Assembly (NCBI GenBank): GCA_964606955.1
Contig: CAZSHZ010000093.1
Span: 1 to 58,231 of the forward strand
Reading direction: 5' to 3'
Source of the DNA: an uncultured Nitrospirota bacterium
GTDB taxonomy: Bacteria > Nitrospirota > Nitrospiria > SBBL01 > CAZSHZ01
DNA length: 58,231 nucleotides
This document shows, one piece after another, positions 10,169-56,401 of the stretch. Under the pieces are notes generated by a model. It ran no database searches. It was not told where the DNA came from and saw only the letters and a program-made list of their open reading frames with translations. The translations under genes were made by a program, and so were the position numbers. Position 1 is the stretch's first letter, and each line of letters starts with the position of its first letter.

Positions 10169-10185
10169 TTATCCCCCCGTTCTGT

Positions 10186-11867: not shown

Positions 11868-11980
11868 CTTTAACTCCTGGTAGAAAGCCGACTATTTTTA
11901 TCGGACTTAGTTAAAAGGAAGATAACATAGGCCTTTAGGGGTGTCAAGTTATTTCCGATGAAAATTGTCGGAGACCCGGG

Positions 11981-16027: not shown

Positions 16028-16037
16028 GCCGACCCCT

Positions 16038-17708: not shown

Positions 17709-17718
17709 CTTTCCTTAT

Positions 17719-18429: not shown

Positions 18430-18470
18430 TCTTCTTTACATTTCTTGAGCAGGGCCCTAAGATTGCGCGG

Positions 18471-21833: not shown

Positions 21834-21949
21834 AGGCCCTCCTCCGCACAGTTGGGCAAAAACTGCGTGACTATGCAGAAGAACAAGGGTGTTGTAAATA
21901 GGTAGAAACACGTTAAATTACCGGAGATTAAAGACGAGAGCGGCGTTCG

Positions 21950-22381: not shown

Positions 22382-22386
22382 AATCG

Positions 22387-23344: not shown

Positions 23345-23447
23345 CTTGATCTCCTCTAGGTTGTCCTCTGGCGATCCGTGTAGCCCTCTGTCGAAAGCGC
23401 ACTGTTTAGCACGTTCGGGCGGCTTTTTCAACTTTTTTCCGATTTTC

Positions 23448-23477
23448 TTGACACCCTTTCCGGCCAGGACTTAAGAT
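23448..23477 (+). promoter_or_regulatory. candidate sigma70-type promoter (TTGACA-N18-TAAGAT) upstream of the FGE-like gene
   Basis: TTGACA at 23448-23453 and TAAGAT at 23472-23477. This would give a nearly leaderless TTG start at 23487. Confidence 0.25.
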
Positions 23478-23486
23478 GGCCGAACT

Positions 23487-24281: not shown

Positions 24282-24325
24282 AGCCTTTTAAAACTTCAGG
24301 GATCATCGCCCTCCCCCTCCCCTGG

Positions 24326-31937: not shown

Positions 31938-32594
31938 TTGAACATGAAAAGGGTGATCTGGCTCTCGATAATCCTGATTTTCAGTTTCGGTTGTGTTGCG
32001 TCCCCCGTTACGGCGCAGGAGCACCCGGATCGGAATAAGTTTCACGCCGACGTGGCGCATACGTTACTTGATATGAATACGACGCTCGACATGATCGAGG
32101 CCTTTCGCGCCCAAGAGAAGATGCCTCCCGACCGCGACGCCGTCCATGAGAAGGCTGCACACGGTTTCAAGCACGGGCTGGAGCTCTTCGGGGTCGAGGT
32201 CAAAATGAAGGAGCACGCTGATCGAAACAAGTTCCATGCAGATGTGGCCCATTCGCTTCTGGATATGAATGTTGCCCTGGACCGGATCGAGGGCTTCCGC
32301 GCGCAGGGGACGATGCCACCGGATCGGGATGAGATGCATGAGAAGACGGCCCACGGTTTCAAGCAGGCGCTGGAGCTCTTTGGAGTTCAGTTCACCATGC
32401 CGAAGCATCCCGATCGAAACAGATTCCATGCTGATGTGGCGCACGCGCTCCTGGAGATGAATACCACACTGGACATCATTGAGAGCTTCCGGGCCGAGCA
32501 GAAGATGCCCCCGAACCGGGATGAGATGCATGAGAAGGCGGCCCACGGTTTCAAGCAGGCGCTGGAGCTCTTTGACGTGAAGATCAAAATGTAA
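31938..32594 (+). CDS. secreted His-rich protein built from three tandem 64-aa repeats (unknown family)
   Basis: Signal peptide (VIWLSIILIFSFGCVASPVTA), then three units of HPDRNKFHADVAHxLLDMNxxLDxIExFRAQxxMPPDRDxxHEKxAHGFKxxLELFGV. GGAGG lies before the ATG. Confidence 0.65.
   Translation: MNMKRVIWLSIILIFSFGCVASPVTAQEHPDRNKFHADVAHTLLDMNTTLDMIEAFRAQEKMPPDRDAVHEKAAHGFKHGLELFGVEVKMKEHADRNKFHADVAHSLLDMNVALDRIEGFRAQGTMPPDRDEMHEKTAHGFKQALELFGVQFTMPKHPDRNRFHADVAHALLEMNTTLDIIESFRAEQKMPPNRDEMHEKAAHGFKQALELFDVKIKM
32019..32591 (+). repeat. three tandem ~192-nt coding repeats (32019-32210, 32211-32402, 32403-32591)
   Basis: Repeat period of exactly 64 codons (His29, His93, His157 are equivalent). High identity is visible at both protein and DNA level. 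Confidence 0.85.
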
Positions 32595-32610
32595 GAAAGG
32601 AGGCTTAGGC

Positions 32611-33330
32611 ATGGACACGGGATTCGAGGGGAAGATCGAAGAGGTCTCGCGGCCCCTCTCCGATGGCGACCCGCGGCGTCGCCTTGCAGCCTTGCGGAAA
32701 CTGACCGAGATCGGGATCTGCCTCCCCTGGGAGGAGAGGCCAGTCGTGGTCCGACGGATGGCGGAACTCGTCGGGGACAGGGAGCCCTTTATTCGCTGGA
32801 ATCTCGCCATCTCGCTCGGTATTCTCGGTCATGAAGAGGGGCTCGTGCCGCTCGGAAACCTGGCAACGGATGAGCATGCGAATACCCGCTTTCGGGCCGC
32901 TCTCGCGATCGGGCTGATCGGAGAGGAGCGAGGAATCGAAACCCTGGAATCGATGGTCGGCGATCCCTACGAGATCGGGGGCCATGCGGCAGTCCGCGCC
33001 TTCGTGGCGATCGCCCTGGGAAAACTGGGGAGGGAACGCGGGATTCCTCTCTTAAAGAAGCTCGCCGCCGACGCCGATCCAGTCGTCCGGTGGCATACCG
33101 CCGTGGCCCTGGGAGATATCGGCCATGTGACGGGAGTTCCCGTCCTCTTTAAGTTGGCGGAAGACCCGATCCCCTTTGTCCGCGCCCACGCGGCAATCGC
33201 CCTCTCCCAGATCGGGGACCCAAGCGCGATCCCCTGTCTAGAACGGATCGCGAGCGATCCGGTGCCTAAAGTCGCCAAGATGGCGGAGGAATCCCTCCGG
33301 CTTCTCAAATCTCTAGGTCCAGACAGGTGA
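32611..33330 (+). CDS. HEAT-repeat (PBS-lyase-type) protein
   Basis: Recurrent DPxVRxxAAxALGxIG(D/H) units (for example DPVVRWHTAVALGDIGH, PFVRAHAAIALSQIGD). AGGAGG lies 8 nt upstream of the ATG. Confidence 0.8.
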   Translation: MDTGFEGKIEEVSRPLSDGDPRRRLAALRKLTEIGICLPWEERPVVVRRMAELVGDREPFIRWNLAISLGILGHEEGLVPLGNLATDEHANTRFRAALAIGLIGEERGIETLESMVGDPYEIGGHAAVRAFVAIALGKLGRERGIPLLKKLAADADPVVRWHTAVALGDIGHVTGVPVLFKLAEDPIPFVRAHAAIALSQIGDPSAIPCLERIASDPVPKVAKMAEESLRLLKSLGPDR

Positions 33331-33740
33331 GGATCGGCCAAGCGGGGAGAGAGGTAGGCCTGCATCCCAGGACGATCCGCTATTACGAGGAGATCGGGCT
33401 CCTCAGGCCGAAACGGAGCTTCAGTCCCCACGGGAACGGATATCGAATATACGGCCGAGACGATCTCGAACGCCTCACGTTCATCAAAGAGGCGAGGCTT
33501 CTGGGGTTCTCGCTAGCCGAGGTCAAAACCGCGCTCCAATCGATAGACGAGGGCTGCTGCGAAGCCGCGCGTCCGCTCATGACCCGCCTCCTGGAAGAGA
33601 AACTCCCCGAGATCGACAGGCGGGTTCAAAACCTCCAGGGGCTTCGCCGTCGGCTCCTCCGGCTGAAGGAGCAGGTCGCCTCAAGGCGACAAACCGTTGC
33701 CACTCCCTCTTGCAAAGGAGTCACCAATTGCGCCTTCTAG
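33327..33740 (+). CDS. MerR-family transcriptional regulator with C-terminal cysteines (metal-sensor-like)
   Basis: IGQAGREVGLHPRTIRYYEEIGLL HTH, a coiled-coil segment, Cys-Cys at DEGCCEA and the C-terminal SCKGVTNC. GTG start overlaps the previous stop (GTGA). Confidence 0.8.
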   Translation: MRIGQAGREVGLHPRTIRYYEEIGLLRPKRSFSPHGNGYRIYGRDDLERLTFIKEARLLGFSLAEVKTALQSIDEGCCEAARPLMTRLLEEKLPEIDRRVQNLQGLRRRLLRLKEQVASRRQTVATPSCKGVTNCAF

Positions 33741-33750
33741 GCCCCTACGG

Positions 33751-33779
33751 TTGACTGAGCACGCGCTCTTTCTTATAGT
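33751..33779 (+). promoter_or_regulatory. candidate promoter TTGACT-N17-TATAGT with the dyad GAGC-N4-GCTC in the spacer
   Basis: Read directly from the DNA. Lies between the merR-like stop (33740) and the YVTN gene start (33795). Confidence 0.35.
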
Positions 33780-33794
33780 TCCGTCGTTCCGTCC

Positions 33795-34745
33795 ATGAGC
33801 GTGATTGTTTTCATCCTGGCATTTTTCATCTCAACGGCTGTCCGGGCCGAGCCGGTCTACACGGCGGATGAGAAAGGGGGGACGATCTCGGCGGTCGATG
33901 CCGAGACCGGGGAGTTGATCGGCCGGCTCGAGGGGCTGGCCGCGCCGCATAACATTCATCTCGGACCAGACGGCCTTCTCTACGCAACGGAGGGGAAGGC
34001 CGATCGCGCGGTCCGGATCGATCCGAAAAAGTTGGCGATCGAGGCTCGTTTTCAGACCGGAAAAGCCCCCGCCCACATTTTCGTCACGCCGGACCGAAAA
34101 TATATCCTTGTCACCAACACCGGCTCGGACGACCTGTCGGTCATCAACTACAACTCCCTCTTTACGGTCCGCCGGCTCGCGGTGGGAGACGGTCCGCACG
34201 GGCTGTCCGTCTCCGCAGACGGCCGGTGGGCGTTCGTCCCCAACTGGAACAGCGGGGATCTGGCGATCGTCGATCTGGCCGAGCTGAAGCTCGCCGCGCG
34301 CATCCCAATCGGCAAGGTCGGCGTTCAGTCATGGGTCACCCCCGATGGCCGGTTCATCTTCGTCACCGATCTGAAGTCAAACAGCGTCTCTAAGATCGAT
34401 GTGGCCGGCCGGAAGGTCGTCGCCACAATCCCGGTCGGCGAGGCCCCCGCGCAACTGGCGGTGACCCCCGACGGGAAGTGGATGATCTCCTGCGACCAGA
34501 AATCGGGAACGATCACCGTCGCGGAGGTGGAGAGCGGGCGGGTCGTCAAAAAGGTGCCTCTGGGGAAATGGCCGCATGGGATCTCTTTCTCCGCCGACGG
34601 CCACTTCGCGTATGTGAGCAATACCGAAAGCAATGATCTGTCGGTGGTCGATCTTGAAAAACTGGTCGAGGTCAGACGGATCTCTGTCGGCCTCGGACCG
34701 AACGGCGTGGCGGCCAGTTATCCGATTCGTCCGCAGAAACCCTAG
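33795..34745 (+). CDS. YVTN-family beta-propeller repeat protein (secreted)
   Basis: Signal peptide. Repeated units of the form Y(V/A)(T/S)NxxSxxLSV(I/V)D and P(H/A)G(L/I)xx(S/T)PDG. Confidence 0.75.
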   Translation: MSVIVFILAFFISTAVRAEPVYTADEKGGTISAVDAETGELIGRLEGLAAPHNIHLGPDGLLYATEGKADRAVRIDPKKLAIEARFQTGKAPAHIFVTPDRKYILVTNTGSDDLSVINYNSLFTVRRLAVGDGPHGLSVSADGRWAFVPNWNSGDLAIVDLAELKLAARIPIGKVGVQSWVTPDGRFIFVTDLKSNSVSKIDVAGRKVVATIPVGEAPAQLAVTPDGKWMISCDQKSGTITVAEVESGRVVKKVPLGKWPHGISFSADGHFAYVSNTESNDLSVVDLEKLVEVRRISVGLGPNGVAASYPIRPQKP

Positions 34746-37852: not shown

Positions 37853-38294
37853 TCAGACCTCCAGCCAGAAGGTGGCCGGGCCATCGTTTTCGATCTCGAC
37901 GAGCATCGAGGCCCCGAACCGGCCGGTCCGGACGGGACGGCCGGTGACCTGCTGCAGGCGGTCGCAAAAGAACCGGTACAGCCGCTCCGACTCGGGCGGC
38001 TTCATCGCCCGTTCAAAGCCGGGGGCGTTTCCCCTTTCGTAAGTCGGCGCAGAGCGTAAATTGCGAGACCACGAGGGACTCGCCGCCGATCTCCTCATTT
38101 GACAGATTCATTTTCCCGGCCGGATCGTCAAAAATCCGGAGACCAGAGATCTTCTTTGCCATCGCCTCGGCGCTCGCGTCCGTATCCCCGCTTGCAACAC
38201 CGAGGAAGATGACGATCCCGCGGCCGATCTCGGCGTGAATGTCCCCGGCGATCCGAACCGCGCCGCGGCGAACGCGCTGGATCAGCGCCTTCAC
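37853..38294 (-). pseudogene. dtd: D-aminoacyl-tRNA deacylase interrupted by a 1-nt frameshift in a G5/C5 run (or an assembly error)
   Basis: ORF 38013-38294 gives MKALIQRV...VVSQFTLCADLRKGKRP. ORF 37853-38098 continues in another frame with GFERAMKPPESERLYRFF...TGRFGASMLVEIENDGPATFWLEV. Deleting one G from GGGGG at 38021-38025 restores ...KRPGFERAM... Confidence 0.8.
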
Positions 38295-38299
38295 CGGAT

Positions 38300-39466
38300 T
38301 CAGGAAAACAGCCCTTTGAAATTCCTCCCCGGGACGATCTTCCCGAGGACGACCGGGTGCGTCGCTCCGGTCGCCGACGGGACGTTCGACGGCTCCCCCG
38401 TGGCGGTCTGGTAGGCGAAGAGCGCAAAGGCCGTCGCCTCGATCGCACGGCTGGCAAAACCAAAATCCTCAAAGGTTCGGAGCGGGATCGGTGCGACCCT
38501 TTCTGCGAGCATCCGCATCAGCGTCGGATTATGTCCCCCGCCCCCTCCCACGATCATCTCCGCCGCCGGCTCCTTCGGAAGAAAGGTTCTCACGTTATAG
38601 GAAATCGCATCCGCCGTGAAGGCGGTCGCGGTGGCGATGAGGTCGGCGGTTGAAAACCTGCCTCCCATCGAGCGGAGCCGTTCGATCATCGGGAGCCCGA
38701 ATACCTCCCGGCCGGTCGTCTTCGGAGGGCGGGACCGGACAAACGGATGCCGCACCAGACACGCCAGAAGCGGCCGGACCACCCTCCCAGAGGCGGCCAC
38801 CCTCCCTCCCCGGTCCATCGCCCTCTTCCCTCTCGAGAGATCGTGGACCAGGCCGTCGATCAACATGTTCCCGGGACCGACGTCGAAGGCCAGAATTCGG
38901 TCGAACCGCCCACCGGGAGGGAGATAGGTCACATTCGAAATCCCTCCGATATTGACGACGATCCGCGCCGTTCGATCGCCTGAAAAGAGGATGGCGTGCA
39001 GAAATGGCGTCAGCGGCGCCCCCTGCCCGCCGGCGGCGAGGTCGCGCGGCCGAAAATCTGCGATGGTGGTAATTCCGGTCCGCTCCGCAATGACGGAGGG
39101 CTCGGCGATCTGCAACGTCGAGCGGATGGCAAACCCGGCGTCCTTCCGGGGGACCGGGAGGTGATGCACGGTCTGACCGTGCGAGCCGATCAGGGCGACC
39201 TCGTCAAGGGGGACCTCGGCCTCTTCGGCGATCTTCATCGCCGCCCGGGCGAAGAGTTCTCCGAGCAAAAAGTTGAAATGGCAGATCTGCGCCACCGATC
39301 CGCTCGCCTGCGCCGCGATCAGCCGCCTTTTCACGCCGGCAGGATAGGGATAGGTCTTGAAACGGATAAGGCCGATTTTCGGGTGCGGGGCCCTCCCAGA
39401 AATCTCGACGAGGGCCGCGTCAATCCCGTCGGTTGAAGTCCCCGAGATCAGCCCGATGACCTTCAC
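38300..39466 (-). CDS. anmK: anhydro-N-acetylmuramic acid kinase
   Basis: MKVIGLISGTSTDGIDAALVE N-terminus and the full-length AnmK pattern (388 aa). Confidence 0.9.
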   Translation of the reverse strand: MKVIGLISGTSTDGIDAALVEISGRAPHPKIGLIRFKTYPYPAGVKRRLIAAQASGSVAQICHFNFLLGELFARAAMKIAEEAEVPLDEVALIGSHGQTVHHLPVPRKDAGFAIRSTLQIAEPSVIAERTGITTIADFRPRDLAAGGQGAPLTPFLHAILFSGDRTARIVVNIGGISNVTYLPPGGRFDRILAFDVGPGNMLIDGLVHDLSRGKRAMDRGGRVAASGRVVRPLLACLVRHPFVRSRPPKTTGREVFGLPMIERLRSMGGRFSTADLIATATAFTADAISYNVRTFLPKEPAAEMIVGGGGGHNPTLMRMLAERVAPIPLRTFEDFGFASRAIEATAFALFAYQTATGEPSNVPSATGATHPVVLGKIVPGRNFKGLFS

Positions 39467-39525: not shown

Positions 39526-40446
39526 ATGCGGCCGACCTTCCGAAACTCTTGTTGTCCTGCGGTTTTTCTCTTATTTCTCATCTCGGCGCCGGCCGAAGCA
39601 AAGGTCAAGGTGGTGGCGACCCTCCCCGTGCTGAAGGATTTCGTCGAGGCGGTCGGGAAAGAGCGCGTGGAGGTGAGAAGCCTGATCAGCGGCCTGGAGA
39701 GCGAGCACACCTATACGCCACGCCCTTCCGATCTTGCCACGGTGGCCGAAGCGCGGATGCTGGTCAAAATCGGCCTCGGTCTTGAGATCTGGGTGGATGG
39801 GCTCGTGAAAAACGCGGGGAACTCAACGCTCCTGGTGATCACGACGTCGGACGGGGTTCCGCTGCTGCGGGATCAGGCGGGGGAAGAACATCGAGAGCGA
39901 AGGAGGTTCAAGGAGCGGCATTCGATGGGGAATCCGCACATCTGGCTGGACCCGGAGAATGCGAAGATCATGATCCGCCACATCACCGCGGGGCTGATTA
40001 AGGTCGATCCGGAGAATCGAGCGGCCTACCTGAAAAACCAGTCGGACTTCTTCGAGCAGATCGACTCACTTGAGCGGACGCTCAAAAGGCGGGTGAGCCT
40101 CCTTCCGGACCGGAGGATCATCACGCATCATCCGGCCTGGCCCTACTTCGCCCGCCGCTTCGGGTTCGTGATCGTAGGGAACATCCAGGCACAGGTCGGG
40201 AGCGAGCCCTCGGCGCGCCGCCTCTCTCAACTGATCGACCGGATCCGGCGGGAGAAGATCCGCGTGGTCGTTTCGGAGCCGCAACTCTCCCCTCGCATCC
40301 CCGACACGCTCCGGCGCGAGACCGGGGTAAAGGTCGTGCTCCTCTCTCCGCTTCCCGGCGCGATCCCGGGGACCGAGAGTTATCTGAAACTAATCTCCTA
40401 CTCTGTCGGCGTTCTGGCCAACGCCCTGGAAAAGGACCGGACATGA
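39526..40446 (+). CDS. metal ABC transporter substrate-binding protein (ZnuA/TroA/MntC cluster 9 family)
   Basis: Signal peptide, VVATLPVLKDFV, EHTYTPRPSD, GNPHIWLDP and the HPAWPYFARRFG motifs of the family. Confidence 0.85.
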   Translation: MRPTFRNSCCPAVFLLFLISAPAEAKVKVVATLPVLKDFVEAVGKERVEVRSLISGLESEHTYTPRPSDLATVAEARMLVKIGLGLEIWVDGLVKNAGNSTLLVITTSDGVPLLRDQAGEEHRERRRFKERHSMGNPHIWLDPENAKIMIRHITAGLIKVDPENRAAYLKNQSDFFEQIDSLERTLKRRVSLLPDRRIITHHPAWPYFARRFGFVIVGNIQAQVGSEPSARRLSQLIDRIRREKIRVVVSEPQLSPRIPDTLRRETGVKVVLLSPLPGAIPGTESYLKLISYSVGVLANALEKDRT

Positions 40447-41222
40447 GGCCGGCGATCATCTGCGAAGGGGTCACGGTCGCCCTCGGCCGGCGCGTGATTC
40501 TTGAAAATCTTACGATGGAGGTCGCGCAGGGGGAATTCGCCGGCATCATCGGCCCGAACGGCGCGGGAAAAACGACGCTCCTGCGGGCGATCCTCGGCCT
40601 GGTCCCGCTCTCCGGCCGTCTGACAATCTTCGACTGCAATCACAAGGATCTCCGCTGCTCTCACCGCGCGCAGATGGGATATGTCCCGCAGAAGGAGCGG
40701 GTTGATCCGAATTTCCCGATCACGGTCTGGGAGGTAGCGGCGATGGGGAGATTCTCCTCGATCGGCCTTCTCCGCCGACCTGCTCTCCTTGACCGGAAGA
40801 TCGTTTCGGAGGCGCTGGAGGCGGTCGGGATGCTCGAGCGGGAGACGGCCCCCTTCGGAAGCCTCTCCGGCGGTCAGCAGCAGCGCGTCCTGAGTGCGCG
40901 GGCCCTGGCGCAGCAGCCCCGCGTCCTTTTACTGGACGAGCCGACCACCGGGGTCGACGCACCGACGCAGCACAGCATCCTCGAGTTGATCCGGCGGCTC
41001 CATCGGGAGAGAGGGCTGCTGGTCCTCTTCGTCACGCACGATATCAATCTGATCTCCCCCTTCGCCGACTCCCTGATCCTGCTGAACCGCCGCCTCTACG
41101 CCAAGGGACCCCGGGAGGGGGTTTTAAGAAAAGAGATCCTCCAGGAGGTCTACGGAAAGGAGGTGATCGTCACGTCCGACGCCGGGCGGTTCGTGATCAT
41201 CTCCGATCACCACCGCGGATAA
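40443..41222 (+). CDS. metal ABC transporter ATP-binding protein
   Basis: Walker A GPNGAGKTT, signature LSGGQQQR and Walker B LLLDEPT. 4-nt overlap with the binding-protein gene. Confidence 0.9.
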   Translation: MRPAIICEGVTVALGRRVILENLTMEVAQGEFAGIIGPNGAGKTTLLRAILGLVPLSGRLTIFDCNHKDLRCSHRAQMGYVPQKERVDPNFPITVWEVAAMGRFSSIGLLRRPALLDRKIVSEALEAVGMLERETAPFGSLSGGQQQRVLSARALAQQPRVLLLDEPTTGVDAPTQHSILELIRRLHRERGLLVLFVTHDINLISPFADSLILLNRRLYAKGPREGVLRKEILQEVYGKEVIVTSDAGRFVIISDHHRG

Positions 41223-41223
41223 G

Positions 41224-42057
41224 ATGTTCGATCTCCTTGCATACGGTTTTATGCAGCGCGCCCTTGCCGCCTCGATCGTCGTGGGACTTGTCTGCTCCAT
41301 CATCGGGGTCTTCGTCACGTTGCGGGGGCTCTCCTTCATCGGCGCCGGAACAGCCCACGCCGCCTTCGCGGGGGTCACGCTCGCTTATCTCGTCGGTCTC
41401 CCCCCCTTCCCCCTGGCCGTCTCGTTCAGCCTAGCCACCGCCTGGATCACCGGATTTTTGGAGCGGGCCGGAAAGATGAAGCTCGACGTTTCGGTCGGAA
41501 TCTTTTACACGACCACGATGGCGATGGCGGTCCTCTTTCTCGGAATGATGCAGGAGTACAATCCGGAGGTCTACGGATATCTCTTCGGGAGCATTCTCTC
41601 GGTCACCCAGGAGGATCTGATTGTGATCGTGATTCTCTCCATCGTCATCCTCGCCCTCCTCTGGGCATTCTTTAAAGAGTTTCACTTCATCACGTTCGAC
41701 CCGGAGATGGCGGAAGCGAGCGGCATTCCCGGCCGCCGGCTCTTTTTCCTTCTGCTGACTCTCATCTCGTTGACAATCGTCCTGGCGTTGAAGGCGGTCG
41801 GCGCGATCCTGGTCTTTGCCCTGATCGTCATCCCCCCAGCGGCCGCCCATCAGTTTGCCTTCAGTATGCGGGGGATGCTCCTCAGATCGGCCCTCTTCGG
41901 GGTCGGGTCGGCCGTCGCGGGGGTCTTCCTCTCCTATCTTTTTGACCTCCCCTCGGGGGCCACGATTGTCCTGATCGCCGCGGCCCTCTTTTTTCTCTCC
42001 GTCTTTGTCTCGCCCAAACGCCAAACATGGGGGCGGGTCGAAGGGCACGGCGGATAA
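41224..42057 (+). CDS. metal ABC transporter permease (ZnuB/TroC/MntB family)
   Basis: About eight TM segments. The FMQRALAASIVVGLVC start is typical of ABC-3 permeases. Confidence 0.9.
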   Translation: MFDLLAYGFMQRALAASIVVGLVCSIIGVFVTLRGLSFIGAGTAHAAFAGVTLAYLVGLPPFPLAVSFSLATAWITGFLERAGKMKLDVSVGIFYTTTMAMAVLFLGMMQEYNPEVYGYLFGSILSVTQEDLIVIVILSIVILALLWAFFKEFHFITFDPEMAEASGIPGRRLFFLLLTLISLTIVLALKAVGAILVFALIVIPPAAAHQFAFSMRGMLLRSALFGVGSAVAGVFLSYLFDLPSGATIVLIAAALFFLSVFVSPKRQTWGRVEGHGG

Positions 42058-42067
42058 AATTTTGGAC

Positions 42068-42096
42068 TTGACAGCCCGAAAAAGAAGGGATATAAG
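42068..42096 (+). promoter_or_regulatory. candidate sigma70-type promoter TTGACA-N17-TATAAG upstream of the giant multicopper oxidase gene
   Basis: TTGACA at 42068-42073, a 17-nt spacer, and TATAAG at 42091-42096. About 105 nt upstream of the ATG at 42202. Confidence 0.45.
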
Positions 42097-42201
42097 GAAA
42101 ATTCTCATGGTTTGGGAATCCTGTTCTTCAGTCCCGTTTCACCCGCAATTCTCTGACCGAGTTAAGTCAACGAACAGATTAAAATTGAAAAGGGGGGAAT
42201 A

Positions 42202-45200
42202 ATGCAGATCGCAGCAGCTTATAATTTTCGGAAGGGTTTGCTTATCTTCGCGCTGGTCCTGGCGGTCCCGGCGTGGGCCTTAGGCGCGGATAACGCAGAC
42301 CAAAACATCAACGACATGCACGCCATGCACGGCGGAACCGGCACCGAGGTCTCGCGAGAGAACGCGGGCCCCGCCCTCATGGGGGCCCTGACCAACCGCC
42401 TCGACTCCGAAATCGCGCGCGCAGGCGGCCAGATGGGCGGTTTTACCTCAAGCGGACAGGCGCACGCGATGTCGCAGGGGGTCCCACTTCGGATCTCGAC
42501 TACCGAGGAGTCTGTGACGTCGGGCGGCCGGTGCCCGGACGGGGTCCCCATCAAGAACTTCGATATCTCTGCGATCAACGTCCAGATTACCCTCAACCGC
42601 TTCATGCAGTTTTTCCCCGGCTACCTCTACGCCCTGACCGAGGATCTCCCGAAGGTCCGCGAGGAGGAGAAGAAGAACGCCGAGGCCCGGAAGAGCGCCG
42701 ATGAGTTCCGCGACGCCGGGGTCTCCACCGGACTTCAGGGCGATTTGATCCAGCCGCTGGTCATCCGCGCCGGCGCGGGCGACTGCGTCCGGATCATCCT
42801 CCGCAATCAGACGACGAACGAGGAGCCGGTCAGCATCCATATCCACGGTTCAAGCCTGATCATCCGCGCCACCGGCCAAGCGGCGACGATGATAAACAAG
42901 GACTCTCTCGTCATGCCTGGAAAGAGCCAGGAGTTTGAGTGGTACATCCCCGGAGACCAGCCGGACAACGCGCACCACTTCCACAGCCATGCGGTCCGCG
43001 AGCAGTGGAACCTCGGGATGTTCGGAGCGTTGGTGGTTGAGCCGCGCGGCTCGCGCTATCTCTCCCCCTGGAGCGGAAAAGAGATGAAGAGCGGGTGGAT
43101 GGCGATGATCGAGGACCCGAACGGTCCGGACTTCCGCGAGTTCGCGATCTTCTATATGGAGATCGGGGATGAGGTCGTCCGGATTCTCGACCGCAAGGGC
43201 GAACTCCTTCCGCAGCGGGACCCCATGACCGACACGTATCGGCCCGCCGCGCGCGGCCTCAATTTAAGGAGCGAGAACCATGGGACCCGCCTTACGCTCC
43301 AGAAGGAGAAGCACGGGATCCATGACGAGTCGATGGCCTACGGATCGTACACCTTCGGAGATCCGGCCACGACTGTTCCCCGCTCCTATCTCGGCGATCC
43401 GGTCAAGTTCCGGATGATGGGGGGGGCCGAGATCATCCATTCCCATCATCTTCACGGCGGAAGCGACCGCTGGCCGCGCTCCCCCGAGGCGGTCACGAAG
43501 GCGGAGTTTGACTTTGCCGCCACATCCAGCGGGACCGGACCGGTGAAGTTCCCGCCGATTCGGACCTCCTCCGAGCGGCTGGATGTCCAGGCGATCGGCG
43601 CCGCGGAATCATTTAACGAGGTGATCGAGTGCGGTTCCGGCGGCTGCGCCTACGGCGCCGGAGACTACACCTTCCACTGCCATATTCCTCAGCACTACGT
43701 GACCGGAATGTGGGGCTTCTGGCGGGTCTACACCACCCTTCAGGCGGCGGGCTCGCAGGACGACATCATGCCGGCGCTGGCGGAGCTCCCCGATCGGAAG
43801 GGTAAGATGAAGGAGGCGGTCGATTCCTCCAAACTGGTCGGCACCACAGTGGACTGGTTTGCCGGAAAGAAGTTCAAGATTACGGCGGACAAGACCGACT
43901 GGAGTGCAAATCCCCAGATGGTTTCGATCAAGGATTGGGTGGAGATGCAGCTTCCGGCCCAGGGACTTCCGGGCGGCCAGGAGGACGAGCATAAGCAGAT
44001 CGTCTCTTACGACGCTAGCGTCTATAACTGGAAGTGGGAGAGGAATGTCGCGTTGAACGAGCCCGAGACCAAGCAGGTCTGGGCCAATTATAAATCGCCT
44101 GCCCCGGGGAAACGGCTCCCGATCCGATGGGATTCGGCCACTGGCAAGCCCTCGATTCCGTGGGAGCGACCACACCTGGGTAAGCGCCCCCCATTCTCGC
44201 CCGACCACAATCCGGCCCCGTTCTTTGAGCCGATCCGGCTCAATAAGGATGGGAAACGGACGACCGAGCCGGCCCAGCCCGGGGAAAACGGCCCTTGGAG
44301 CCTCTGCCCCTCGAACGCGCCGCGCAAATACTACACGATCAACGCGATCGGACTTCCGATCACGTTGAAAACGGCGACCGCCAAAACGCCGGCGATCGTC
44401 GATCCGGACGCCCAGATCTTCGTCCTGGAGGAGGAAGAGGCGGCGGTCCGGGTGACACCCGCCAAGCAGGTGCCGCTGGCGATCCGCGCGAACGTCTACG
44501 ACTGCGTGGACGTCGTCTTCAAGAGTAAACTTCCGGACGACAAGCGGGTGGCCAATTCCAGCAAGGTCAACATGCACCCGCACTTCTTCCAGTTCGACAT
44601 CACCGCCACCGACGGGGTGATCATCGGATTCAACTATGAGCAGTCGGTCCGGCCGTTCAACCTGTTGAAGTCGGAAGACCGGGAAGAGACACACCACGGA
44701 ATGCCGATGCCGCAGAATACAACGCTGACAAAGGCGGCCAAGGCAGGGGATCTCTCGATTACGGTCGCCTCGACAGTCCGGCATATCGACGTGAACGAGG
44801 ACAAGTTCGACACCCCGATGTTCCACCCGGGAACTGTGATCGGAATCGGCCTGGACGGAGTCGGAGAATTCGAGGCGAGAAGGATCAAGGAGATCAATGG
44901 GAACAAGGTGATCTTCACCGAACCGCTGATCAACGACCACGCGGCCGGACGGATCGTCAGCGTTGAGTACGTCCGCTACCGCTGGTATCCGGACGTCGAT
45001 CTCGGGATCGTCTTCTGGCATGACCATGTCTTCGGGCTCGACTCCTGGGGACACGGGCTGTTCGGCTCGACGATCGTCGAGCCGCCTCGCTCCACCTATC
45101 ACGATCCAACGACCGGCAAGGAGGTCCGAAGCGGTCTGGTCGTCGATATCCACACCACCGATCCGGTCTCGGCAAAAGTGACAGGGAGTTTCCGGGAGAT

Positions 45201-46986
45201 CGTCATGCGGATCATGGACTCGAATCCGCGGACTGCCGAATTGATTTCGGCCGACAACCCGATGGCTGGGAGGCCATCGGTCGACGGAACCCCATCTGCA
45301 AAGTATCCCGATAAGATCAACAAATCGCCGATGAGCTTTCTCAATGGTGGGGAGGCGACCACCGGGAGCGGACTTGATATGCGGGTGGAGCCGCTCTCGG
45401 TCCGGCTGGCCAACAACCCCGATCCCGCACTCCTCTTCTCCAGCAAGATCCATGGGGATCCGGAGACGGCGCTGGTCCGGGCCTATCTGGGCGACCCGAT
45501 CGTCTTTAGGGTCCTTCAGCCTGCAGCCAACGAGGCGCACACCTGGCATGTGAGCGGCCACTGGTTCCCGGAGGATCGGTACAACGACGACGCCCTTCCG
45601 CGCAACACACTTCGGATCGCGATCGCCGAGCGGATGGACGTGGTGCTCCCGGCGGCGGGAGGACCGCAGCGGATGGCGGGAGACTATCTCTACTACTCCG
45701 GCCGGGCCTCCCACTTCGCGGAGGGGTCATGGGGGCTCATTCGCGTACTGGATAAAATGGACAAGGGCCTGCAGCCTCTGCCGAGCCGTGAAGAGATCCC
45801 GACCTCGGTGAAGGAGCTCTGCCCGGGCGACGCGCCTGTGAAGAACTTCGCGGTCTCGGCCGTCGACCACACCCTGAAGTTCAACCCCGGAATCCCGGAG
45901 GTGATGGAGGTCGATCTTGGACGGAATCTGAAGCTCGGCAACAAGGAGGGGAAGGTTTATCTCCTCGACGATGAGGTCACCCGGGTCAAGAGCGGGATGC
46001 TCTCACCGCACCCGCTGACCCTTCGGGTGAATGTCGGCGACTGCATCAAGATCAAATTGACCAACCGGATGGCGAAGGAGCGGGCCGGTCTACATGCGGA
46101 CGGGCTTGCCTTTGACCCGAAGGATTCGATGGGGATCAACGTCGGAAACAACGGCGGCGACCAGACCGTCGCTCCGGGCCAGAGCCGCCTCTACACGTTC
46201 TATGCGCATCCGGAGCTGGGCGAGAACGCGGCGCTGATCCAGGACTGGGGGAACGTGATCGACAATCCGCGGAACGGCCTGTTCGGGGCGATCATCATCG
46301 GTCCGAGAGGGTCGAAGTATCGCGATCCGGCCGGCGGAGCGGATATTTCGATGCGGAACTCCTGGCAGGCGGATGTGATCGTGGACCGGTCGGTCCCGGG
46401 GAACGAGACCCGGGAGAACTATCGGGACTTCGCCCTGATCTTCCAGGACGAGGACAACCTGATCGGCACCAGCTTTATGCCGTACGCCCAGAAGGTGGCG
46501 GGTTTGACCGGGATCAACTATCGCGCCGAGCCGAAAGACTACTACCTCGACGAGAAGGGGTGCGCGGTCGGTCTGGTCTTCCAGTGCATCTCCGAGAGCA
46601 GCAAGGGGGCCATCAACACGCCGGTTCTGGAAGCGCACGCCGGGGACAAGGTCCTCATCCATGTCTTCGGCGGGTTCATGGAGCAGGTGGGGGTCTTCGC
46701 GCTCGATGGTCACGAATGGCCGGTGGATAATTTTCGAGGGGCGCACCTCCACAGCTCTCTGGAGTTCGGCGGCAGTTCCTATGTCCGTGTCGATCTTCGG
46801 GGCGGCGCCGGCGGACCGCATCAGCTCCCCGGTGACTACATCTATATGAACCATCGGGCGGCCTACATCGACGCCGGTCAGTGGGGGATCTTAAGAGTCC
46901 TCCCGAAGGGGGAGAAGAGAATCCTGGCGCTCAATCCGACCGAGTCGAAAGTCCGGCCGGTCTCTCTTTCGGCGAACGGCCGCTAG
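42202..46986 (+). CDS. giant (1594 aa) secreted multicopper oxidase, internally triplicated
   Basis: Sec-type signal (ALVLAVPAWALG). Complete copper-ligand set in the first ~510 aa: HIHG (42838-42849), HHFHSH (42973-42990), HSHHLHGG (43438-43461) and HCHIPQHYVTGM (43675-43710). Degenerate second and third units follow (WHDH at 45016-45027, HTWHVSGH, and others). Confidence 0.88.
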   Translation: MQIAAAYNFRKGLLIFALVLAVPAWALGADNADQNINDMHAMHGGTGTEVSRENAGPALMGALTNRLDSEIARAGGQMGGFTSSGQAHAMSQGVPLRISTTEESVTSGGRCPDGVPIKNFDISAINVQITLNRFMQFFPGYLYALTEDLPKVREEEKKNAEARKSADEFRDAGVSTGLQGDLIQPLVIRAGAGDCVRIILRNQTTNEEPVSIHIHGSSLIIRATGQAATMINKDSLVMPGKSQEFEWYIPGDQPDNAHHFHSHAVREQWNLGMFGALVVEPRGSRYLSPWSGKEMKSGWMAMIEDPNGPDFREFAIFYMEIGDEVVRILDRKGELLPQRDPMTDTYRPAARGLNLRSENHGTRLTLQKEKHGIHDESMAYGSYTFGDPATTVPRSYLGDPVKFRMMGGAEIIHSHHLHGGSDRWPRSPEAVTKAEFDFAATSSGTGPVKFPPIRTSSERLDVQAIGAAESFNEVIECGSGGCAYGAGDYTFHCHIPQHYVTGMWGFWRVYTTLQAAGSQDDIMPALAELPDRKGKMKEAVDSSKLVGTTVDWFAGKKFKITADKTDWSANPQMVSIKDWVEMQLPAQGLPGGQEDEHKQIVSYDASVYNWKWERNVALNEPETKQVWANYKSPAPGKRLPIRWDSATGKPSIPWERPHLGKRPPFSPDHNPAPFFEPIRLNKDGKRTTEPAQPGENGPWSLCPSNAPRKYYTINAIGLPITLKTATAKTPAIVDPDAQIFVLEEEEAAVRVTPAKQVPLAIRANVYDCVDVVFKSKLPDDKRVANSSKVNMHPHFFQFDITATDGVIIGFNYEQSVRPFNLLKSEDREETHHGMPMPQNTTLTKAAKAGDLSITVASTVRHIDVNEDKFDTPMFHPGTVIGIGLDGVGEFEARRIKEINGNKVIFTEPLINDHAAGRIVSVEYVRYRWYPDVDLGIVFWHDHVFGLDSWGHGLFGSTIVEPPRSTYHDPTTGKEVRSGLVVDIHTTDPVSAKVTGSFREIVMRIMDSNPRTAELISADNPMAGRPSVDGTPSAKYPDKINKSPMSFLNGGEATTGSGLDMRVEPLSVRLANNPDPALLFSSKIHGDPETALVRAYLGDPIVFRVLQPAANEAHTWHVSGHWFPEDRYNDDALPRNTLRIAIAERMDVVLPAAGGPQRMAGDYLYYSGRASHFAEGSWGLIRVLDKMDKGLQPLPSREEIPTSVKELCPGDAPVKNFAVSAVDHTLKFNPGIPEVMEVDLGRNLKLGNKEGKVYLLDDEVTRVKSGMLSPHPLTLRVNVGDCIKIKLTNRMAKERAGLHADGLAFDPKDSMGINVGNNGGDQTVAPGQSRLYTFYAHPELGENAALIQDWGNVIDNPRNGLFGAIIIGPRGSKYRDPAGGADISMRNSWQADVIVDRSVPGNETRENYRDFALIFQDEDNLIGTSFMPYAQKVAGLTGINYRAEPKDYYLDEKGCAVGLVFQCISESSKGAINTPVLEAHAGDKVLIHVFGGFMEQVGVFALDGHEWPVDNFRGAHLHSSLEFGGSSYVRVDLRGGAGGPHQLPGDYIYMNHRAAYIDAGQWGILRVLPKGEKRILALNPTESKVRPVSLSANGR

Positions 46987-47006
46987 GCCGGTTCCGAGAT
47001 AGATCA

Positions 47007-47041
47007 GGGGCGCGAGGTTGAGGCCTCGCGCCCCTTTTTTA
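47007..47041 (+). terminator. intrinsic terminator after the multicopper oxidase gene
   Basis: GGGGCGCGAGG-ttgagg-CCTCGCGCCCC (11-bp stem) followed by TTTTTTA. Confidence 0.7.
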
Positions 47042-47497
47042 TTCCCCGGTCAGGCGCCGATAGAGTCGATGAAACTCTTCGGTATCGAGGGGCGGGTCCG
47101 ACAGCCTCTGAAGATCTTCCGGGCGGATTGGCACCTGCACAATTTCATCAAAGATCGAGGTCCCGATCGCAATGTAGCCGGGCCGGATCCTCTTCTGCGG
47201 GATCAAGAACTTCACGCCCCGGTTGTGGGTCGTCGCAAGACGGATCGCCAGCCGGGCCACATCGGCGGGAATCTCTCTCCCGATTGCGATATTCGCCGGA
47301 GGATTGCCGGCTGCGAAGAATTGATGCCGGATCCGGGTCACCGAGAGGGCCGCGAACTCTTTTTTGATCTGGTCCAGATCTCCCCTCCGCTCCGCCGCAA
47401 GAGAAATCTCTACGAGGACGGGTCCCGCCAGGGCAGGCGACGGCGCGGGTAGAAGCAGGAGCGTAAGAAAAAGCGCTTCAAATATTTTAATGGACAG
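47039..47497 (-). CDS. small secreted hypothetical protein, probable non-canonical (CTG or ATT) start
   Basis: The track ORF (47039-47341) is open further upstream in the same frame and encodes a signal-peptide-like SIKIFEALFLTLLLLPAPSPALA-GP. This is preceded by AGGAG. No ATG, GTG or TTG is available; CTG lies at 47497 and ATT at 47491. Confidence 0.4.
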   Translation of the reverse strand: MSIKIFEALFLTLLLLPAPSPALAGPVLVEISLAAERRGDLDQIKKEFAALSVTRIRHQFFAAGNPPANIAIGREIPADVARLAIRLATTHNRGVKFLIPQKRIRPGYIAIGTSIFDEIVQVPIRPEDLQRLSDPPLDTEEFHRLYRRLTGE

Positions 47498-47524
47498 TCG
47501 GATCTCCTTTCGATATATTTTACT

Positions 47525-48586
47525 ATGATAAGGACAATGGTGCAGAGAAAACCTCTCCTCGCCCTCCTCCTTCTGATCGCGCTCCCCGTTTCCCAGATTC
47601 CAGGTGCCGACCCGGTAAAATGGACCTACTCAACGGGAAATACCATCTTCTCGGCCGTCGCCCTCGGCGGAGAGGGGAGAATCTATGTCGCCTCCTTCGA
47701 CGGGTATCTCTACGCCTTGACATCGGCCGGAACCCTGAGGTGGCGATACAGAGTCGGCCGCTTCGCCAATTCGACCCCGGCGCTCGACAGGGACGAGACT
47801 CTCTACGTCGGTTCGGAGGACCATTTCCTCTACGCCCTGACGACCGGGGGCGACCTGAAATGGCGCTATACCGCCGGCGCAGGGATCTTCTCATCCCCGG
47901 CGATCGGCAGCGGGGGGGCGATCTACTTCGGATCCGAGGACGGCTATCTCTATGCGCTGGACCCGCGCGGAACGCTCCTCTGGCGGCGCAAGATCGGCAC
48001 TCCCGTCAGTTCGGACCCGGCCGTCGGGAGAGACCAAACGGTCTATCTCGGCTCGGAGGACGGCCGGCTCTACGCCTTCGCCTCCGACGGAGAGTTGAGA
48101 TGGCACGCACTCCTCGATTCGGGCCTCTCCTCCCCCACGGTCGGACCGGACGGCGCCATCTACGTCGGATCAACAGGGGGATACCTTTACAGCATCGCCC
48201 CCGACGGGAAGACGCGCTGGCGCTATCGGACTGAAAAATTCGTCTCCGCCGCCCCGGCGATCGGAGTAGACGGAACCATCTACGCCGGATCTTACGAGGG
48301 GGATCTATACGCGCTCACGCCCGATGGGGCGCTGAAGTGGCGCTCCCCGGTGCAAAGCTCGCTCCATTCCACCTCCGGGATCGGACCGGACGGCAAGATC
48401 TTCATCGGATCGGTGGACGGTTTCCTCTATGCTCTGACCCCCAACGGGGAGCCCGTCTGGCAGTTCCGGCCGGGCCACGCCGTCTCCTCCATCCCGACGC
48501 TTGCAAAGGACGGGACGGTCTATGTTGGATCCCACGACGGCTTTCTCTTCGCCCTCGTGGTCAAGAAAAGGCAGTTTCTTTCCTAA
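47525..48586 (+). CDS. PQQ-like/BamB-like beta-propeller repeat protein (secreted)
   Basis: Signal peptide, then about eight units of the form G(T/A)(L/I)(Y/F)(V/F)GSxDGxLYAL(T/D)xxGxL(K/R)W(R/Q). Confidence 0.8.
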   Translation: MIRTMVQRKPLLALLLLIALPVSQIPGADPVKWTYSTGNTIFSAVALGGEGRIYVASFDGYLYALTSAGTLRWRYRVGRFANSTPALDRDETLYVGSEDHFLYALTTGGDLKWRYTAGAGIFSSPAIGSGGAIYFGSEDGYLYALDPRGTLLWRRKIGTPVSSDPAVGRDQTVYLGSEDGRLYAFASDGELRWHALLDSGLSSPTVGPDGAIYVGSTGGYLYSIAPDGKTRWRYRTEKFVSAAPAIGVDGTIYAGSYEGDLYALTPDGALKWRSPVQSSLHSTSGIGPDGKIFIGSVDGFLYALTPNGEPVWQFRPGHAVSSIPTLAKDGTVYVGSHDGFLFALVVKKRQFLS

Positions 48587-48627
48587 TAGGGGACCGCCAT
48601 TTGACCTTACTCCTCAACCTTCCTATC

Positions 48628-49377
48628 ATGAAACCGATGAAATTGGTAGGCCTTCTCCTCCCGACTCTCCTCCTTCTTCCCGTCCTGGGAATCCAGGAAC
48701 CCCGGAAGATTGCCGATATCGAGCGCTATTTTCCCGACAACATCGGCGAGCACTGGACATACCGGGGAATCGTGGTCGACCAGATCCGCCGGGTGGGAGA
48801 TGCGGGTGAATATACCAACACCGCCACCATCACCGGGACCACGGTGAAAAAGGGGGTGACAGTGAAGGTCTTCGTCGAATCGAACCAGGCGAACAACGGC
48901 CCCGCCGAGAGTTATTTTTTGAAGGACAAGAACGGCATCACCTACTACGGCGGAAACCCGACGACGACGTTTGAAACTGGAATCACTCCGTATCGGGTCG
49001 TCCCCTTCCCCTTCGAGATCGGCCTCTCGTTCCGGCAGTTGGAGAAAAAGGGGGTCAACTTCGGGCGGGATCTCGATCATGACGGAAAGGACGAGACTGC
49101 GGATGTCGTCGCTGAAATTAAATTCTCCCGTTTCGAGACGATCACCGTCCCCGCCGGCACATTTAAAGACTCTCTGCGGACCGAGGGGCTGATGGATATT
49201 GCGATCAGCCTTTCCAAGAGCGGCCGGGTAGTCCATCTGATCGACCGGACGACCAACTGGTTCGCCTATCAGATCGGCCTGATCAAAGGGATTGAGCGGA
49301 CGGAGTGGCCGGTCATCGACGCCGCCCCGCCGCGCATTCTCACCGTGACCGAAGAGCTGGAAGAGTTCGCGTTCTAA
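48628..49377 (+). CDS. secreted hypothetical protein
   Basis: Start set at MKPMKLVGLLLPTLLLLPVLG (signal peptide) because the track extension overlaps the previous gene. No family recognised. Confidence 0.5.
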   Translation: MKPMKLVGLLLPTLLLLPVLGIQEPRKIADIERYFPDNIGEHWTYRGIVVDQIRRVGDAGEYTNTATITGTTVKKGVTVKVFVESNQANNGPAESYFLKDKNGITYYGGNPTTTFETGITPYRVVPFPFEIGLSFRQLEKKGVNFGRDLDHDGKDETADVVAEIKFSRFETITVPAGTFKDSLRTEGLMDIAISLSKSGRVVHLIDRTTNWFAYQIGLIKGIERTEWPVIDAAPPRILTVTEELEEFAF

Positions 49378-54585: not shown

Positions 54586-55634
54586 TGTCCTTCCTCACAG
54601 TTAAAAATCTCGTCAAGCACTTCCCGGTCGGGCGAGGCTGGTTCTCGCGGACCACGGAGGTTGTGCATGCGGTGGACGGCGTTACCCTCTCGATGCGCGA
54701 GGGGGAGACGCTCGGGCTGGTCGGAGAGTCGGGCTGCGGCAAGAGCACTCTGGCCCGCCTGATCCTCCGCTTAATTGAGCCGACGTCGGGGGAGATCTTC
54801 TTCGACGGAGAAGATCTCCTCCGGATGGACAAAGAGGCGCTTCGCCGAACGCGCAGAAAGATCCAGATGATCTTCCAGGACCCTTACGCCTCGCTCAATC
54901 CGCGCATGCGGGTCCGAGACATTGTCGGCGAGCCGCTGATCATTCACGGAGCCGGCAACGGCCGGACGCGCCCTCTCTCGAAAGCGGAGCGCGAGGATCG
55001 GGTGGCACAGATCCTGGATCGGGTCGGGCTCTCCCGCGAGGCGATGGAGCGATATCCCCACGCCTTCTCCGGGGGGCAGCGCCAGCGGATCGGCATCGCG
55101 CGCGCCCTGATTTTAAATCCCAAACTGATCGTCGCCGACGAGCCGGTCTCGGCTTTGGACGTCTCCATCCAGGCGCAGGTGATCCGGCTCCTGTTCGACC
55201 TCAAGCGCGAGTTCTCCCTCTCCTATCTCTTCATCGCGCATGATCTGGCCCTAGTCGAGCAGGTCTCCGATCGCGTTGCGGTGATGTATCTGGGAAAGAT
55301 CGTGGAGACGGCCTCCGCCGAGGATCTCTACCAGGCGCCCCTCCATCCCTACACGGAGGCGCTCCTCTCGGCGGTCCCGATCCCCGACCCGACGGTCAAG
55401 CGCAAACGGCTCCTCCTCCCCGGAGACGTCCCCTCGCCCATCTCGCCCCCCTCGGGCTGCCGCTTCCATCCCCGCTGTCCCCTTTACGCCAAATATCGGG
55501 AGCCGATCTGCGTCAATGAAGAACCTCCCCTTACGGAGATCCTGCCGGCTCACTTCGCCTCCTGCCATCTGCGCCAGGCCGGGTACGATATGCCGACGCG
55601 ATCGCCGATCGCTGAAGGGGATTCCGCAAAGTGA
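54585..55634 (+). CDS. ABC transporter ATP-binding protein, DppF/OppF-like with a C-terminal oligopeptide domain
   Basis: [28 protein letters not shown], and a C-terminal [11 protein letters not shown] motif. Confidence 0.85.
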
Positions 55635-56401
55635 GCCGGACCCGAATGGAGAGGGTTCTCCCGCCGATCCCGGAGGAACTCTCAACGCAGCGCCTAAAAA
55701 ATTATCACGGCGAGGAGTGGCACACGCCTCGCGGCCGGCGGATCCGCGAGGTCGTCTTCGGAATCAACGACGGCGTGATCACCACAATCGGATTCCTCGC
55801 CGGGGTCACCGGCTCCGCCATTCCGCACTCGGTCGTCACGCTGGCCGGGATCGTCATGGTGGCGGCCGGAGCCGTCTCCATGGCGATCGGGGCGTTCGTC
55901 TCCAGTAAGGCGCAGATGGAGTTTTTCGAGCAGGAGATCGCCCGCGAGCGGGAGGAGATCGAGACGGCCCCGGAGAAGGAACGCCAGGAGGTGCACGAGA
56001 TCGTCTCGGAGATGGGTTTTCTTCCCGACGAGGCCGGAATGATCTCCCGCCGGATCACCTCGGACAAGAATCTCTGGCTGTCGTTTATGATGAAGGAGGA
56101 GCTGGGGATCGGCGCTCTGCAGTTCGACAATCCGCTCCATCTCGGGCTCCTCATCGGTTTCTCTTTTCTGCTCGGCGGGGTCCCCCCTCTGTTTCCCTAT
56201 ATCATCCTCGATCGGCCGCTGACGGCCCTCGGCGCCGCGGTGCTGACATCTCTGCTGATCCTTTTTGCGACCGGCGCGATCAAAACCGTCGTGGCGAAAG
56301 GACATTGGTGGAAAAGCGGTCTTTCGATGATGGGGTTCGGAACGGCCGCGGCGGGGATCGGTTTCGCCGCCGGCCTGCTGATCCGAAGTTTCATCGGTTG
56401 A
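55631..56401 (+). CDS. VIT1/CCC1-family iron/manganese transporter
   Basis: [23 protein letters not shown], an acidic cytosolic helix ([19 protein letters not shown]) and C-terminal TM segments. GTG start overlaps the previous stop. Confidence 0.8.

Follow-up and report, generated by a model that had tools for sequence, protein, structure and literature searches.

In the genome of an uncultured Nitrospirota bacterium, a run of genes that resembles a single metal-handling locus is probably a composite, in which a conserved housekeeping backbone carrying a zinc-type importer and a 249-amino-acid (249-aa) secreted protein flanks a relocated, minimal module built around an MnxG-like multicopper oxidase. 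The run occupies positions 39526-49377 of contig 93 (CAZSHZ010000093.1), a stretch of 58,231 nucleotides (nt) that was analysed whole and is called the window here; the source genome measures 1.88 Mb, is 94% complete and belongs to the same order as Candidatus (Ca.) Manganitrophus. A sequence-only reading of this DNA had described importer, oxidase and neighbouring secreted proteins as one contiguous periplasmic neighbourhood for metals. On comparison with relatives that neighbourhood dissolves: a small secreted protein and, in one family of genomes, a propeller protein are syntenic with the oxidase, whereas the importer, the 249-aa protein, an upstream island with a MerR regulator and a downstream dehydrogenase E1 gene are not. 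Where a genome is small and rearranged, adjacent genes can give a false impression of unity, and here an inconspicuous gene for a protein of 150 aa is the conserved partner of the oxidase.

Gene content between 38.3 and 50.4 kb was taken from a listing of open reading frames (ORFs) and from profile searches (Pfam, NCBIfam), and the places of the window genes were determined by tblastn in 41 related genomes, two of which are Ca. Manganitrophus sp. GAC4 and a Manganitrophaceae chromosome. The order in relatives is sat, mrp, PCP_red, a haem-oxygenase-like gene, anmK on the opposite strand, znuA, znuC, znuB, a variable slot and then the gene for the 249-aa protein. The slot spans about 2-12 kb and holds, for example, genes for malic enzyme and a Band 7 protein in the closed genome G014; in the window the genes for oxidase, small protein and propeller stand there, and would form a three-gene module. 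ZnuA orthologues (54-64% identity) were found in 40 of the 41 relatives, where they adjoin anmK and lie far from the oxidase, at 0.66 Mb in G014 and at 1.45 and 1.47 Mb in two further closed genomes (G017 and G030, respectively). ATPase orthologues (59-61% identity) follow znuA in the relatives, and permease orthologues (66-69%) keep the same order.

The 249-aa protein behaves in the same manner, with a single-copy orthologue near znuABC in 32/41 relatives; in the five that were looked at (L033-L037) it sits about 2-12 kb past znuB and never adjoins the oxidase. As had been suggested, its gene (48628-49377, forward strand) encodes a secreted protein of no established family, with a signal peptide and only a sub-threshold DUF3108-like match (E = 0.008). 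The listed GTG start at 48337 did not stand: that frame overlaps the propeller gene and matches relatives only by alternative-frame conservation, and the real start is the ATG at 48628. Seen from the side of the oxidase the picture is the same, since no importer gene occurs in 20 oxidase loci of relatives, searched with all window proteins, or in 23 loci of the small protein, and neither of the long-contig oxidases that come closest to that of the window (80% and 77% identity) has an importer nearby. Synteny in related genomes had been named as a check on the single-neighbourhood proposal, and it goes against it: in relatives, neither znuABC nor the gene for the 249-aa protein ever lies beside the oxidase.

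The importer is the three-gene ATP-binding cassette (ABC) system that had been described at 39526-42057. Genes for a ZnuA-family (cluster A-I) substrate-binding protein (39526-40446; Pfam ZnuA, 232 bits), an ATPase (40443-41222; Pfam ABC_tran; overlapping both neighbours) and an ABC-3 family permease, znuB (41224-42057; Pfam ABC-3, 246 bits), form one forward-strand operon. Of the Zn/Mn specificity first assigned to it, the manganese half finds no echo in the binding site. The best solved relatives of the binding protein are zinc binders (Synechocystis ZnuA 1PQ4, Bacillus subtilis YcdH, AdcA and AztC); alignment to 1PQ4 and YcdH places a histidine in all three ligand motifs (ESEHTY, GNPHIW and THHPAW), and a serine stands at the position that is aspartate in manganese and iron binders. 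The ligand positions and numbering of the ZnuA-type site, that aspartate included, we take to be those of structures in the literature. This pattern suggests that the importer is likely a zinc uptake system and not of the manganese type, a wording that we keep no firmer because the binding protein reached no curated NCBIfam equivalog cut-off (ZnuA, 110 vs 268 bits; AztC, 165 vs 350; MntC, 170 vs 400). The zinc importers ZnuABC and AztABC share with it the three-gene architecture, the ZnuA fold family and the three conserved histidine ligands, but where they have a long histidine-rich loop the window protein has a short charged one with two histidines. No Zur/Fur-type palindrome was found upstream of znuA. 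The same genome encodes a second ZnuA-family binding protein (contig 151, C151:589-1311), whose aspartate-rich fourth-ligand motif would make it a better candidate for manganese or iron uptake than the window importer.

The oxidase gene lies on the same strand, as had been noted (42202-46986; 1594 aa, secreted). Its product has an architecture of six cupredoxin domains, of which Pfam detects only the first ones. In a phmmer search, Bacillus MnxG (9bxa_A) was matched at E = 1e-94 and 321 bits, far ahead of all other solved structures, with aligned segments (181-534, 788-1295 and 1057-1198) that form three colinear units. Foldseek, run with an AlphaFold model of residues 101-1300, also placed 9bxa_A first (E = 4e-56, template-modelling (TM) score 0.55), and ceruloplasmin came next (TM 0.36-0.47) together with factor V/VIII. 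The Pseudomonas-type MnxG equivalog model of NCBIfam (NF041487) gave 109.8 bits against a cut-off of 3100, and we therefore call the protein MnxG-like and not MnxG. The second rank of ceruloplasmin, along with a paralogous Manganitrophus locus where expression of a CopD-like membrane protein co-varies with that of the oxidase, could be taken to mean that the enzyme oxidises Cu(I) or Fe(II) for copper or iron homeostasis, like CueO or ceruloplasmin. We find this distinctly unlikely, as ceruloplasmin and enzymes of the CueO type are much more distant than MnxG in both sequence and fold, and copper-resistance genes were not found beside the oxidase in the window.

The oxidase family is already known, having been described in 2013 and 2022, and its homologues carry the names Nitrospirota, Nitrospiria and Ca. 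Manganitrophaceae. We found it in 38/41 relatives and in 36 of 151 genomes chosen evenly across Nitrospirota (hereafter the phylum sample), all 36 from one class and including every Nitrospiraceae genome (23/23). The window oxidase is 73-80% identical to one Manganitrophus-type copy and 59-63% identical to the Nitrospira-type copies, and it is the only copy in its genome, versus two to three in relatives.

Copper-ligand motifs could be assigned at H213/215, H261/263, H413/415/416/418, H492-C493-H494, H498 and M503. They compose the series HxH, HxH, HxxHxH and HCHxxxHxxxxM, that is, one type-1 site plus the eight histidines of a trinuclear cluster. H492/C493/H494/H498 align with MnxG H334/C335/H336/H340, the last of which is alanine in the deposited structure, an H340A mutant. 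Across 24 family members H413/415/416/418, H492-C493-H494, H498, M503, H792/794 and H940/942 are invariant, whereas the first-domain HxH pairs (residues 213-263) are only 79-96% conserved. With invariant HxH pairs in the second unit and variable ones in the first domain, the trinuclear copper cluster may be placed between domains 2 and 3 instead of being formed by the first unit alone. The signal peptide lacks a twin arginine and is of the Sec type, and the protein would therefore fold and acquire its copper outside the cytoplasm.

Given established multicopper oxidase chemistry and this invariant ligand set, the enzyme would take single electrons from a periplasmic metal ion; the type-1 copper would relay them to the trinuclear cluster, where O2 would be reduced to water. 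By analogy with MnxG, its closest characterised relative, Mn(II) is the most likely substrate. The Mn or Fe oxidation or detoxification function that had been proposed for the entire neighbourhood is thus plausible for the three-gene core, because the oxidase is MnxG-like, and unsupported for a single locus that includes the importer. A related proposal, made for the homologous oxidase by Lucker et al. in 2013 (PMC3578206), is that the module serves in reactive-oxygen defence, with periplasmic Mn(III) scavenging superoxide where classical enzymes are lacking. In keeping with it, Fe/Mn superoxide dismutase, catalase and Nramp were not found in the 94%-complete genome, in a search that left superoxide reductase and Cu/Zn superoxide dismutase outside its scope. 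That genome is incomplete, though, the proposal stands in the literature as a hypothesis only, and it leaves the dedicated small partner and the propeller unexplained; we consider it rather unlikely.

Expression signals surround the oxidase gene, as the sequence-only reading had described. A sigma-70-like promoter candidate on the forward strand (42068-42096) consists of TTGACA (42068-42073), a 17-nt spacer and TATAAG (42091-42096); it was read from the sequence, a consensus scan having missed it because its last base is G. No conserved element, this candidate included, is shared between the window and the regions upstream of orthologous oxidases (220 nt aligned). A sigma-54 consensus is absent upstream of the oxidase in the window; among the 18 loci of relatives that were also searched for it, only those of two relatives have one. 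Downstream, an intrinsic terminator (47006-47035, forward strand) separates the oxidase gene from the convergent small-protein gene; its 13-bp stem contains 10 G-C pairs and is followed by the T-run TTTTTTATT.

The small-protein gene (47039-47497, reverse strand) encodes a secreted alpha/beta protein of about 150 aa, and its linkage to the oxidase across the class Nitrospiria is strong. The family is present in 36 of the 41 relatives, and in 25 of them a copy lies within 10 kb of an oxidase, even though these assemblies are fragmented; it was also found in 12/20 oxidase loci of relatives. In the phylum sample, 17 of the 151 genomes encode the small protein, and all 17 are among the 36 that carry the oxidase (0/115 of those without it). 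Each of the 19 copies in this sample occurs within 3.4 kb of an oxidase, and the oxidase beside a Nitrospiraceae copy is always one of 59-63% identity to that of the window; conversely, the small protein is encoded in 15/16 genomes that have an oxidase of 59% identity or more. Among species-representative genomes, a scan gave 23 small-protein loci, all in Nitrospirota, and 14 of these have an oxidase within 8 kb. By our own estimate the 10-kb surroundings of two or three oxidase genes make up about 2% of a 3-Mb genome, the share expected by chance; the genomes counted are related and hence not independent samples.

Two subtypes can be told apart by position. The subtype of the window is usually downstream of the oxidase and convergent with it, at 50 bp to 3.2 kb, and one further locus (L047) reproduces this convergent layout with an oxidase of 81% identity. 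Of the second subtype, 21/23 copies lie upstream of the oxidase.

The convergent, secreted product that had been predicted here was confirmed, with a longer reading frame. Its listed start (GTG 47341) cuts off conserved sequence, as homologues align well upstream of it and carry signal peptides. A signal peptide can be reached only from CTG 47497, the probable start, which has AAGGAG 6 nt upstream; no ATG, GTG or TTG includes it, and ATT 47491 is the sole alternative to the CTG. Homologues in relatives start canonically; the CTG is a rare start codon, or else a base was called wrongly. The family appears not to have been described before. The protein has no Pfam hit, and none of its 67 homologues in databases bears a name; the few assigned to a taxon are Nitrospirota. 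An AlphaFold2 model has a mean predicted local distance difference test (pLDDT) score of 93 and a compact alpha/beta fold.

Homology of the small protein to MnxE/MnxF, the accessory proteins of Bacillus MnxG, was considered and ruled out: a search of its family profile against PDB sequences found nothing, and no PDB fold match was significant (best E = 0.09, TM 0.35-0.42). In the mechanism that we propose, the small protein, and perhaps the propeller, would most plausibly act as a periplasmic maturation factor, accessory subunit or scaffold, roles that we infer from linkage only and that would be analogous to MnxE/MnxF in function, not in sequence or fold. A more specific version, in which the small protein is an obligate partner of one Nitrospiria clade of MnxG-like oxidases, as a new accessory subunit or maturation factor, and the propeller is a scaffold in Manganitrophus-like lineages, is offered tentatively and is more doubtful than probable. 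If it were true, this reduced genome, with its minimal set of three genes, would hold the simplest natural form of the system for reconstitution.

The eight-bladed, BamB/PQQ-like propeller that had been recognised in the window (47525-48586, forward strand; Pfam PQQ_2 and Beta-prop_ACSF4) is made of eight repeats of about 40 aa behind a signal peptide without a lipobox cysteine. With BamB it shares only the eight-bladed PQQ_2 fold class; the lipoprotein cysteine of BamB is absent from it, and its score against the BamB model (TIGR03300) is 131 bits, below the cut-off of 285. Orthologues were found in 12/41 relatives, the source genome counted. In seven genomes of the Manganitrophus-like family f4 they are 53-61% identical and adjoin or directly follow the orthologous oxidase. 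The propeller of this family stands between two tandem oxidase paralogues, and the propeller occurs in no other group of the 20 oxidase loci.

Several observations weigh against a composite of this kind or against the parts assigned to it. No terminator lies between znuB and the oxidase, so that read-through transcription is possible. In the small genome G005, znuA and znuC are 6 kb from an oxidase paralogue, a proximity that we judge incidental because a fragment of an enoyl-CoA hydratase gene, mutL and a tetratricopeptide-repeat (TPR) gene intervene. Propeller orthologues of families f2 and f7 are on contigs other than that of the oxidase. Partners that usually accompany the oxidase in relatives (cupredoxin-like CarboxypepD_reg proteins, a TPR protein and a sigma-54 activator) are not beside it in the window. 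The small protein lacks a conserved Cys/Met/His cluster of the kind that would point to copper handling, and its role is for that reason a guess. The AlphaFold2 model of the oxidase is of only moderate confidence (pLDDT 71), and the metal specificity assigned to the importer depends on ligand positions taken from the literature.

Part of this could be read in favour of one integrated Mn or Fe oxidation or detoxification locus, in which the importer would supply or sense the metal for the oxidase, the propeller and the secreted proteins. Besides the proximity in G005, all genes of 39526-46986 are on one strand with just 144 bp between znuB and the oxidase, and a MerR gene (33327-33740), a gene for a histidine-rich periplasmic protein (31938-32594; three repeats, 16 His in 218 aa) and VIT1 occur in the same window, where all three had been pointed out. 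We nevertheless regard such a locus as highly improbable. None of the relatives, oxidase loci and small-protein loci compared shows the adjacency seen in this genome; the importer and the 249-aa protein keep a conserved position of their own, the binding site of the importer looks zinc-type, the oxidase has its own promoter-like element, and the other neighbours are housekeeping genes. The MerR gene and the gene for the histidine-rich protein belong to an island (31938-34745, with HEAT and YNCE propeller proteins) that is missing in G014; sat and mrp are only 256 bp apart there, at the place of the island in the window, which makes it a separate insertion.

The loci of relatives contain proteins that the window oxidase does not have at its side. 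Secreted cupredoxin-like proteins of about 300 aa follow the oxidase in 16/21 loci, in one to three tandem copies (e.g., L027:6211-7179); they combine a CarboxypepD_reg domain with an H...CGMHEFMQ motif, amicyanin-like in its CxxHxxM, and are annotated in published tables only as 'carboxypeptidase family protein'. The source genome has two distant copies (24-32% identity) on another contig (C172:23726-25508). A secreted protein of 140 aa is a further partner that is common in relatives and not found beside the window oxidase. In a metagenomic locus (L041, a JGI 3300019487 contig, 10001-25046), the oxidase gene is followed, in this order, by genes for the small partner, for a cupredoxin-like protein, for two proteins with an FGE-sulfatase domain and for a cytochrome bd-like oxidase with cytochromes c, an arrangement reminiscent of the Nitrospina cluster figured in 2013 (PMC3578206).

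A third oxidase locus of Manganitrophus-like genomes (L042, G017:970000-989900) comprises, in order, a PAS-sigma-54 activator, a CopD-like membrane protein, the oxidase, a cupredoxin-like protein and a hemerythrin. Its gene order matches that of four genes of strain Mn1 whose published expression co-varies. In seven Mn-grown cultures of that strain the oxidase was expressed at 35, 40, 35, 2200, 334, 132 and 1976 (Table S6, PMC9040806), and the CopD-like, PAS-sigma-54 activator and CarboxypepD_reg genes followed the same pattern (PMC9040806). We rejected these data as evidence for the window oxidase, since the matching gene order in the closed relative shows that they belong to a paralogue of 54-55% identity at another locus.

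The cupredoxin-like proteins bear on a further possibility, that the enzyme oxidises Mn(II) for energy conservation and passes the electrons to periplasmic blue-copper carriers and the respiratory chain, not to O2. The organism belongs to the order of the manganese lithotroph Ca. Manganitrophus, the oxidase of relatives is followed by one to three such proteins with the H...CxxHxxM motif, a bd-like oxidase and cytochromes c stand beside it in the metagenomic locus, and electron transfer to a periplasmic carrier was named as a condition for lithotrophy by Yu et al. in 2022 (PMC9040806). The same authors favour Cyc2 and porin-cytochrome complexes, however, and the invariant trinuclear ligand set points to direct reduction of O2. 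The only cupredoxin genes of the source genome are the two distant copies away from the oxidase, and the roughly 60-fold variation of the strain Mn1 paralogue among Mn-grown cultures is unlike that of a core energy enzyme. This possibility therefore seems very unlikely to us, and we retain the O2-reducing metal oxidase described above.

Among characterised systems, the Mnx complex of Bacillus sp. PL-12/SG-1 (MnxG with an MnxE3F3 ring; PDB 9BXA, the structure of Novikova et al. 2024 as cited in PMC13689576) provides both the best sequence match and the best fold match, and carries the type-1/trinuclear motif HCHxxxHxxxxM in the same domain. Both enzymes are large, secreted multidomain oxidases encoded together with small accessory proteins, yet their identity is only about 20% and the window oxidase is some 370 residues longer. 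No MnxE or MnxF is encoded next to the window oxidase, whose small partner is unrelated to them in sequence and predicted fold; the window has no spore context, and the propeller partner is absent in Bacillus. The mnxG operon of Pseudomonas putida GB-1 (PMC13689576) likewise pairs a giant oxidase with helper genes, and its sigma-54 control (PMC13689576) parallels the sigma-54 activators beside the oxidase in relatives of the window; the window itself has no SCO1/SenC genes and a promoter that looks sigma-70-type.

The nearest counterparts are the oxidases of Ca. Manganitrophaceae and of Nitrospina and Nitrospira, which belong to the same protein family and have the same small partner, and Manganitrophus-like genomes have the same propeller as well. 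The Nitrospina/Nitrospira oxidase was described as periplasmic and similar to the Bacillus SG-1 enzyme in 2013, together with the proposed Mn(III)-based defence (PMC3578206), and all Ca. Manganitrophaceae were reported in 2022 to encode 'two novel MCOs' (multicopper oxidases; PMC9040806). In a 2024 preprint, mnxG-like genes were present in all its Nitrospira genomes and homology was held to be no predictor of function. Unlike the loci of Ca. Manganitrophaceae, the window has no second oxidase, cupredoxin-like protein, TPR protein or sigma-54 activator beside the oxidase, which stands in a different place, next to znuABC. Nearly all genomes related to the only bacteria known to respire manganese encode giant MnxG-like oxidases, whose substrate has been guessed at since 2013. 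Against this background the region offers a stripped-down starting set (oxidase, small partner and propeller) with recognisable signals for expression and assay.

The flanks of the region hold housekeeping genes. On the left, ORF listing and profile search identified AnmK (38300-39466, reverse strand). To the right of the gene for the 249-aa protein are a PiT phosphate transporter gene on the reverse strand, genes for 2-oxoacid dehydrogenase E1/E2 and oligopeptide ABC ATPases, and then the VIT1 gene (55631-56401), at the 55.6 kb where it had been placed. No PiT orthologue was found in five relatives, and orthologues of the E1 dehydrogenase lie elsewhere in relatives. A dehydrogenase operon as ancestral neighbour of the oxidase was considered and rejected, since the E1/E2 genes that lie near an oxidase paralogue in genome G002 show only 37% identity and the true orthologues are elsewhere. 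Three cytochromes c that had been counted within 10 kb are in fact about 16 kb upstream of the region, where three tandem monohaem genes (143, 164 and 204 aa) occupy 21950-23431 on the reverse strand. Next to anmK, at 37853-38294 on the reverse strand, the translated stretch contains an internal stop.

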